In this document: in pieces, positions 27,601 to 30,600 of the stretch
Layout: each line of letters starts with the position of its first letter
Position numbering within the stretch: position 1 is the first letter of the stretch
Assembly: GCA_030390025.1 (NCBI GenBank)
Contig: CM059435.1
Location: forward strand, 14,446,001 to 14,510,000
DNA length: 64,000 nt
DNA from: Squalus acanthias
Lineage: Eukaryota
Reading direction: 5' to 3'
The notes under the pieces: generated by a model
What the model was told of the DNA's origin: nothing
Seen by the model: only the letters and a program-made list of their open reading frames with translations
The model's database searches: none
Made by a program: the position numbers and the translations under genes

Positions 27601-30600
27601 GAATCTGCCTCACAGTTTCTTTCAAGATTGCACATTTATCGGTTTGACATTGAAGTTGTCAATGTCACTGAGGTTGGCAGAGATTAGTTCAGCCAGCTCC
27701 TCAATGTATTTGCTCTCTTGCTCACGACGACGCTTTTCAATGCTGCAGTTCACACTGTCAAACAAGTTATACAGGATGGTGAATACTCTAATAATCGCTA
27801 CCAACAAATAACCTCATAACAGTCTAGTTCCTGCCAGAATACAGTATCAATTTTCTATCACCACAATCTGCATGTTCTGCAATTCATTTTTGCCACAGAA
27901 ATCAGTGACTTCTACTTAATAGTAACAAGACTGAACAGAATGTCGATCAAAGCAAAGTGCTGCAAGCTGTGTAGCCTCTAAGTTAGCCATCAACGAGCAT
28001 AATGAAGAACAGTCAACTTGGTATACAAAGATAATGTTTTTCAGAACAAAACTTACAATGTTCCTGAAAACTGAACATAGCAGCTGAGTGTGTTCAGAAC
28101 TCAAACCATTTTCTGCATGTGATCAAGTGCAGCATAGCAAAAGGATTTGAACTTCAAGATTTCTACTACTCAGATCATGACAATATTGATCTGCTTAATT
28201 AGTTCACTGATGAATAAGAGGTATTGACCTCCGCCCCTATAATTTTTTTTCCTCTCTTTCACATGGCAGCTGATCATCCTGCCATTGCCATTTACACTTC
28301 ATCTAGTCATCTTTTGTTTCTTAACTTGTTCCTTTACCATCTCCTTTTGCCCTGCACCATCATCCCTTTTGTCTCTTAATCTCTCCTGCCTTCCACCCTA
28401 TCACAGACCTTCCATTTTGTTCTTTCCTCTCCCCTCTCCCCTCCCCCCTCTCCCTGCTCCTACACTTGCTTAAAAATCTGTTACATCTCCAACTTTTTCC
28501 AGTTCTGACGAAGGGTCATCGACCTGAAACGTTGACTCTGTTTCTCTCTCTACAGATGCTGCCTGACCGGCTGAGTATTTCCAGCATTTTCTGTTTTTAT
28601 TTCAGATTTCCAGCATCCGCAGTATTTTGCTTTTGTAAGAGGTATTGGCTAGCCGCTTCGGAGGTCCCGATTCCACGTTATGCTCGCTGGGGCGCATTCA
28701 AATGATTTTTCCAGGAAATTTCAGCCCAAGTTCGCAACGGAAAGACTGATGTGTGAAATGCCGTAATTTACAGTCTACGTCACCAATCACACCTTCCAGG
28801 AACTTCTGGCCAATGTTTTTATTAGAGATATAAATATTTTTTAAAAGGTTGCAGTACTGCAGATCTTCCCACAGGTGGCATCGCATTAATGACTTCAACT
28901 GCATATAGGCCTATGACTTTTAAGCAGATTCACAAAGAGAAGGGAGAACCTTATACTTAAAATTTATGCTGATAGTTGGCCTGCAAAAAGAGTGTTTTTG
29001 TAGATCGTATCCTGCTTCTTCAGCCAGAAAATCTCTAGCTCCTCAGACATGTTTGGTGCAACTCAAAACAATACATTGTTTGTGCCAAGACTTGGTGCTG
29101 GGCAGATTAGTGTAGGTTAGGGCAGATTCCACTTATACTGCTGGGCAAGTTCCACCAAATACATGCATAATAAGGCAGTTGTATCTTTTTTTTAAGATCC
29201 TGCACCTGCATTACTTGTATGAAAATTCATATGGCAGCTGAGTCAATCAGTATTTTAGGGAGTGGAGAAATTCAGATCAAGAGTCCACAACCTGCCAACC
29301 CAGCATTGCCATGGCACCTAGCCTGGAGAGGTATGGTTTATACCAGCGATGATTCCCAAGAAATCAAGTGGCAATTGATTGTGCCAAACTAAAATGTATT
29401 TTCACTAGTTTCAGAACAAATTGAGCTACTTACCACTCTGAACAGGGTACAAACTCTCACTCTGAATGTGAATGCAGTAAGAATCACTAGTGACAAAGAT
29501 TTGGCCCTGGGGAATGTGTCTAAATAGCAATGTTTCAGATAAAAAAATGTGAGTGTTCCTGGAACAGATGAGTAAAATGGAAATGTTTACTGCATGGCGC
29601 TTAAACACAACACTTCCATTTCATAAACATTGCTAATGGATAGATGTAGAGAAATCCATTCATATTTTTGCAGGACAAATCAAATAAAGTCTTTTACAAC
29701 ACGTTTTCTTTAGGAAAAAGTCTGCAGAACTGCAATATGTTACTTTTATTTCCTAGGATTATTTCACTGACTAATATACCTTGCCGTATCAATCGGAGCT
29801 GCAGCATTTTGCCAGAAAACCCAGAAATGCCTAGTCTCTCATGAATGCAAAAAGCAGTTTTCAACTCCACTTCCAAGTGCATGCCAACTAAACATAGTGG
29901 CCTGAGGTTTCCGCTAGGTTGCGCTGGTTTTTTCAGTGCATTTTGCCTGAAAACTGCTAAACCAGCGCAGAAGATCGAGTAATTTCAAGCACAAATTACG
30001 TCCAGCCCAAATCGAGTTTCCACAATCTTTTGTGCGAAATCTGGCCCCGCCCACAAATCTGGCCATACCCCCAGATTGAATTAATCACCACTTGGAGTTT
30101 CCGCTAATTGCACCAGTTTGCGGGCCATCGAGGAGGCTCTTAAAATTAAGCTGGGTGGGGTTTTTTTTTTGGTTTTTTTTTGGCGCAAGGACACTAATAG
30201 GCATGTTTTAAAAGCTTGAAAAACAATTTTTAATTTACTAAGAAACTGACTGTACACCAATGTAACTAGTAAATGGTTCTGTATAGTTTTTTAAAGTCAT
30301 TTTCTGTTATTTAAGATCGGGTGGTGGACGAGACACTGATTAAAAATGCTTATTTTGTGATAAACTAATTTTCAGCTGTATTAATAAAACTCTTAAATAT
30401 ATCAAGGAATTTTTTTTCTGCAATTTTTTTTTTTAAATTACATTCTAAAACGCTGCCTGATTGCACTGGTTCATGGAAGATTTTACATTCGGCGATATGC
30501 AAATAAGTTTGAGCGGAAACTTGAGCAAAAAAAAAAACCACATTGTAAAACTAGTGCAATTTTGTACGCAGTTTGCGCCTGGATCGCCGATTGCGCCCAA

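Follow-up and report, generated by a model that had tools for sequence, protein, structure and literature searches.

The single base missing from the bHLH exon of NCOA3 in this assembly of Squalus acanthias is very probably a consensus error, in which case NCOA3 of this shark is unremarkable; its bHLH exon is intact in all four data sets that we compared. The gap is almost certainly absent from the species and most likely absent from the assembled animal as well. The weights that we give to this reading and to its two rivals below are a matter of judgement. All positions refer to the window, the 64,000-nucleotide stretch of contig CM059435.1 that was analysed, in which NCOA3 lies on the minus strand with 15 coding exons; the gene passes the left end of the window, and about 226 C-terminal residues fall outside the comparison.

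31400..31507, minus strand: coding exon 1; ATG at 31488, 89 coding nt; a second ATG at 31415 in another frame; 0 differences from the RNA contig
27583..27754, minus strand: coding exon 2, bHLH; 172 nt as assembled here, 173 nt in the X7 transcript contig
27640..27641, minus strand: where the base is lost; CC in the window, CCC (the Pro68 codon) in all compared runs
27622..27624, minus strand: premature TGA after 73 codons; arises only in the 172-nt form
25231..25331, minus strand: coding exon 3; 101 nt; in the RNA contig
24780..24954, minus strand: coding exon 4; 175 nt, PAS-A; M155 at 24855; in the RNA contig
21652..21840, minus strand: coding exon 5; 189 nt; M201, M205, M226, M237
18784..18888, minus strand: coding exon 6; 105 nt; P0001 match and open frame
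17854..17994, minus strand: coding exon 7; 141 nt, PAS-B
16720..16867, minus strand: coding exon 8; 148 nt; P0001 match and open frame
14136..15450, minus strand: coding exon 9; 1315 nt; SRC-1 / receptor-binding region
11712..11883, minus strand: coding exon 10; 172 nt, in phase
8642..8842, minus strand: coding exon 11; 201 nt
5693..5926, minus strand: coding exon 12; 234 nt
4727..4856, minus strand: coding exon 13; 130 nt
3275..3446, minus strand: coding exon 14; 172 nt, in phase; Nuc_rec_co-act domain
340..645, minus strand: coding exon 15; 306 nt; NCOA3 carries on past the window

The bHLH exon is bounded by AG and GT ends (27754-27583, minus strand) and is 172 nt long as assembled. Exon 1 exits in phase 2 and entry into exon 3 needs phase 1, and therefore 173 nt are required, a shortfall that the first-pass annotation had already pointed out. 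At 27640/27641, a coding-strand run of three C is cut to two (G2/G3 on the plus strand). Joining the exons as assembled gives a frame of 73 residues that ends in the tail KPINVQS and meets a TGA at 27624-27622, the same product and stop that had been described before. A tblastn search with NCOA3 of the sawshark Pristiophorus japonicus (isoform X1, P0001) placed residues 30 to 68 in frame -2 (39/39) and residues 69 to 88 in frame -1 (20/20), with the change of frame at 27640; given an E value of 6.7e-24, the switch is not due to chance. With the break filled by an N, every one of the 15 coding exons in the window is open; together they yield 1217 aa with no stops, at 97.1% identity to P0001 and 96.3% to Heptranchias perlo (P0133), the break being read as X. 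This is the only break across the 15 exons, and the earlier statement that the other 14 are open and in phase holds. That the gene is no decayed pseudogene also stands, decay being contradicted by the single break in 15 exons and an intact spliced transcript contig.

The gene itself, judged by its sequence, is an NCOA3 orthologue and not NCOA1 or NCOA2. A search with exon 9 recovered NCOA3 of sharks and rays at 87 to 98% and that of other vertebrates at 51 to 55% among the matches listed, and the best matches, at up to 98% identity, bore the name NCOA3 or NCOA3-like, while 6 of the 120 listed had a generic one. Pfam bHLH_NCOA (PF23172) was found on 27643-27753, before the break (E 7e-19, profile positions 32-67 of 81). 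The window exons map at 97% to P0001, whose domain order is the same: bHLH_NCOA followed by PAS-A and PAS-B (PF23172, PF00989, PF14598), then SRC-1 (PF08832, 631-721) and Nuc_rec_co-act (PF08815, 1076-1122), which correspond to window exons 9 and 14. A PDB search with a 37-aa piece returned weak bHLH matches only (BMAL1, E 0.1-0.93).

Conservation around the break is strong. The motif VKPDKC occurs in 114 of the 120 top homologues, and the other 6 begin downstream of it. Comparison with related species, which the first-pass annotation had proposed, covered 42 proteins of 21 shark and ray species. The intact motif is present in 39 of these proteins and in every one of the species; the exceptions are an exon-skip model (P0129) and two C-terminal fragments. 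These shark and ray counts exclude P0121 (54 aa, an unrelated cluster member) and draw on a cluster of which 39 of 63 members were listed. The frame-shifted tail appeared in none of the 120 top homologues and in none of the 42 shark and ray proteins. Database protein models may have been mended by annotators, and we treat the motif counts as supporting evidence only. Residues 30 to 88 of P0001 match on either side of the break, and the P. japonicus and H. perlo proteins resemble the window closely in identity, as given above; what sets the window apart from shark and ray NCOA3 is a base lost only in its assembled sequence and not in the organism's own transcript. As a separate observation, NCOA3 of Chiloscyllium plagiosum is represented by a 1127-aa protein (P0125) and two C-terminal pieces of 313 and 319 aa (P0154, P0155), which looks like a split annotation.

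Independent data from the same organism carry most of the argument. A search with positions 13900-15700 listed 24 runs. Among them are DNA runs of the same organism (sample S1, share 1.00; sample S2, share 0.98) and, from four further samples, runs of that organism that are probably RNA. Four of these 24 runs, from three samples and three studies, were compared over 24700-31600: X1, X3, and X5 (DNA) and X7 (RNA). X7 has the recorded type "RNA?" and no run is on record as RNA; we counted it as transcript solely on the strength of a contig in which four exons are spliced together. The part read came to about 95% for X1 and 55% for X5, and some differences in X1 and X3 are uncounted.

All four runs carry an extra plus-strand G behind 27640, which supplies the third coding-strand C and reads CCC-GAT (Pro-Asp). 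In each run, one contig bridges 27640 with more than 31 letters on each side, and the depth with the extra base is the full depth (5.62/5.62 in X1, 14.9/14.9 in X3, 22.7/22.7 in X5, and 34.9/34.9 in X7). With the base restored, the exon is 173 nt long and reads Lys-Pro-Asp-Lys-Cys like its relatives. The first-pass annotation had named reads or cDNA with CCN-GAT in a 173-nt exon as the mark of an artefact, and CCC-GAT is what all four runs contain, including the spliced RNA contig. In that contig (X7 record 25, 7320 nt), exons 1 to 4 run unbroken at record positions 272-830 with no other letters changed and one gap, and exons 2 to 4 span 449 letters compared with 448 in the window. The organism makes an intact spliced NCOA3 message. 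A flag marks X1, X3, and X5, but not X7 (sample S4), as runs from which the window may derive; those three may thus be non-independent, or may not be its source at all. The short, two-C form was found in no listed contig of the four runs, and these are contigs, which drop alleles, so that its absence is not demonstrable from them.

The RNA contig bears on exon 1 in two further ways. Roughly 270 nt of it precede exon 1, beyond the compared stretch, and therefore at least one untranslated exon must lie upstream of 31507. At residues 7 and 16, which are Asn and Ser in the 39 full-length proteins listed from sharks and rays, exon 1 (31488-31400, minus strand) encodes Ile7 and Ala16; the RNA contig is the same as the window at both sites, and these are therefore real traits of the organism.

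We also considered how the window differs from the DNA runs elsewhere. Over ~4.1 kb, 7 of 18 substitution rows and 5 of 8 indel rows are differences that all three DNA runs share against the window. In all five of these indels it is the window that lacks letters, each time at a short run or repeat, a direction of loss with a probability of 0.03 at even odds. Leaving the bHLH gap aside, 11 rows (7 substitutions and 4 further indels) set the window against all three DNA runs, so that its haplotype may belong to an animal that the runs do not represent. X1 and X3 come from a single sample; at 16 rows both are unlike the window, and at 4 they disagree with each other, a pattern that fits poorly with random picking between two haplotypes of which the window's is one (P = 2.5e-5). 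The excess of indels among window-only differences relative to those among the other haplotypes was not significant (Fisher P = 0.20), and none of the 7 window-only substitutions falls in coding DNA, which makes up 448 of the 4080 bases (P = 0.44). The window is either another haplotype or contains about a dozen errors in 4.1 kb.

The further letters that the window lacks against the DNA runs lie at 27761 (AC), 26452 (AAATT), 29185 (T), and 29390 (A), all at short runs or repeats; an A at 26952 is missing relative to two of the three DNA runs. The AC at 27761 is lost from the acceptor tract of exon 2, 7 nt upstream of the exon. These losses are either local consensus errors or marks of a distinct haplotype. 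Very high-copy interspersed repeats (26950-27233 and 28354-28637) flank the bHLH exon, with a summed contig depth above 1 million in the DNA runs and 85 to 88% identity to other copies in the window. Farther away, at 42300-48200 (minus strand), lies a broken LINE-like element with reverse-transcriptase motifs at 42670, 42499, and 42400, and a strong G skew was seen at 42001-48000.

The first-pass annotation had thought a consensus error most likely, and CCC-GAT in all four runs supports it. We favour the same reading because all four runs carry the base, because the site is a homopolymer, because the local indels seem to lean toward lost letters, and because NCOA3 is conserved. The loss would have arisen in the assembly rather than in the animal, probably when under-calling of a homopolymer in long reads shortened three C to two. 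The real gene would encode a full-length p160 coactivator of ~1,440 aa with a bHLH domain, two PAS domains, and regions that bind receptors and CBP/p300. Homopolymers and tandem repeats are error prone and a cause of false frameshifts, according to one assembly study (PMC12212083). As in indel errors of this kind, one base has been lost in a short run of an intact, conserved gene and the organism's other data contradict the loss; as a point of difference, the run is only three long. The argument from context has a further caveat, since natural indels also favour short runs and repeats.

The stronger of the two rivals, which we consider unlikely, is that the assembled animal bears a rare heterozygous one-base deletion on the window haplotype and that this allele is null. 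Most frameshifts in good human assemblies are real: the same study gives a mean of 78% of gene frameshifts in polished human assemblies as supported real variants (PMC12212083), and we therefore keep this rival alive. Furthermore, contigs are unable to show that an allele is absent, and the window haplotype, with its 11 other differing rows, is perhaps unsampled. A carrier is also plausible given that NCOA3-null mice are viable (PMC10498919). Against this, the deletion is seen in the contigs of none of the three samples, the site is a short homopolymer with similar losses nearby at 27761 and 29390, and null alleles should be rare in a gene with 97% identity to that of the sawshark over 1217 aa and the motif in 21 species.

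Were the deletion real, the allele would act as a null. From the TGA it is 39 nt to the exon 2/3 junction and 140 nt to the following one, with all later junctions farther still; since the usual rule for nonsense-mediated decay is 50 to 55 nt, message from the deletion allele would probably be degraded. Reinitiation downstream of a 73-codon frame should be weak. There is a slim chance that a private deletion on one haplotype constitutes a natural loss-of-function allele of a conserved coactivator of growth and fertility, one that could leave only forms lacking the bHLH domain, including an exon-skipped form from the ATG at 31415 with both PAS domains. Mice without NCOA3 show delayed puberty, reproductive defects, and dwarfism (PMC10498919). 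Even so, this would amount to one heterozygous null in one animal, a matter of genetic load and no new mechanism.

A deletion that is fixed or common in the species, leaving only an N-truncated delta4-like coactivator made from a downstream Met or a frame repaired by alternative splicing or slippage, is barely credible. The first-pass annotation had raised an allele yielding only a delta4-like coactivator; as a species trait this is not upheld, with the exon intact in 4 of 4 runs from three samples, transcript included, and a fixed delta4-only allele is refuted by the intact spliced transcript contig and the DNA runs. In-frame downstream Mets do exist (M155, M201, M205, M226, and M237), and restart downstream is known for human AIB1-delta4 and mouse delta5 (PMC10498919, PMC12907120). 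The earlier placement of in-frame Mets in 21652-21840 was right for M201, M205, M226, and M237 and missed the first one after the stop, M155 at 24855. Splice rescue fares no better: each of the 13 AG acceptors in 27800-27640 leads to a closed frame, and both GT/GC donors that lie from the break to the stop are out of phase for exon 3. The shifted tail, moreover, is in none of the homologues compared.

In human AIB1-delta4, exon 4 is skipped, a stop follows in exon 5, and restart in exon 7 costs 223 residues (PMC10498919); in mouse AIB1-delta5, a 101-bp exon is skipped and the start is M235, eleven residues past human M224 (PMC12907120). The broken shark exon 2 fits human exon 4 by position, and skipping it leads to a stop in the next exon after 35 aa, while shark exon 3 is 101 nt long, as is the skipped mouse exon. 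Shark M226 (exon 5, three exons on) matches human M224 in exon 7, and mouse M235 is equivalent to shark M237, eleven residues past M226. These isoforms arise by alternative splicing of an intact gene, whereas here an assembled sequence lacks one base, which delta4 and delta5 do not explain. A literature search on NCOA3, shark, and genome returned nothing on a shark NCOA3 gap by title or by the start of the abstract.

A separate lead concerns the ATG at 31415 in exon 1 (minus strand), which does not share the frame of the full protein but joins that of exon 3 (25331) if exon 2 is skipped. The resulting frame has 1135 open codons to the last window exon and starts MLRDRGKASS; a RefSeq model from Heterodontus francisci (isoform X5, P0129) starts MLRDQGKASS, lacks the bHLH domain, and keeps both PAS domains. 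It is possible that sharks make a delta4-like isoform without bHLH from this ATG, a candidate drawn from one automatic model, which unlike human delta4 would keep PAS-A. The start context at 31415 is weak. Neither skipping of the bHLH exon nor the exon-2-skipped form was seen in the X7 contig listed, which includes exon 2, and minor isoforms can drop from contigs.

If, as we expect, the gap is a consensus error, its importance is confined to curation. Annotation from this assembly would shorten NCOA3 or call it a pseudogene, and loss of the gene in a shark might be wrongly reported. With several window-only lost letters in this region, other single frameshifts in the genome need a check against the reads first.
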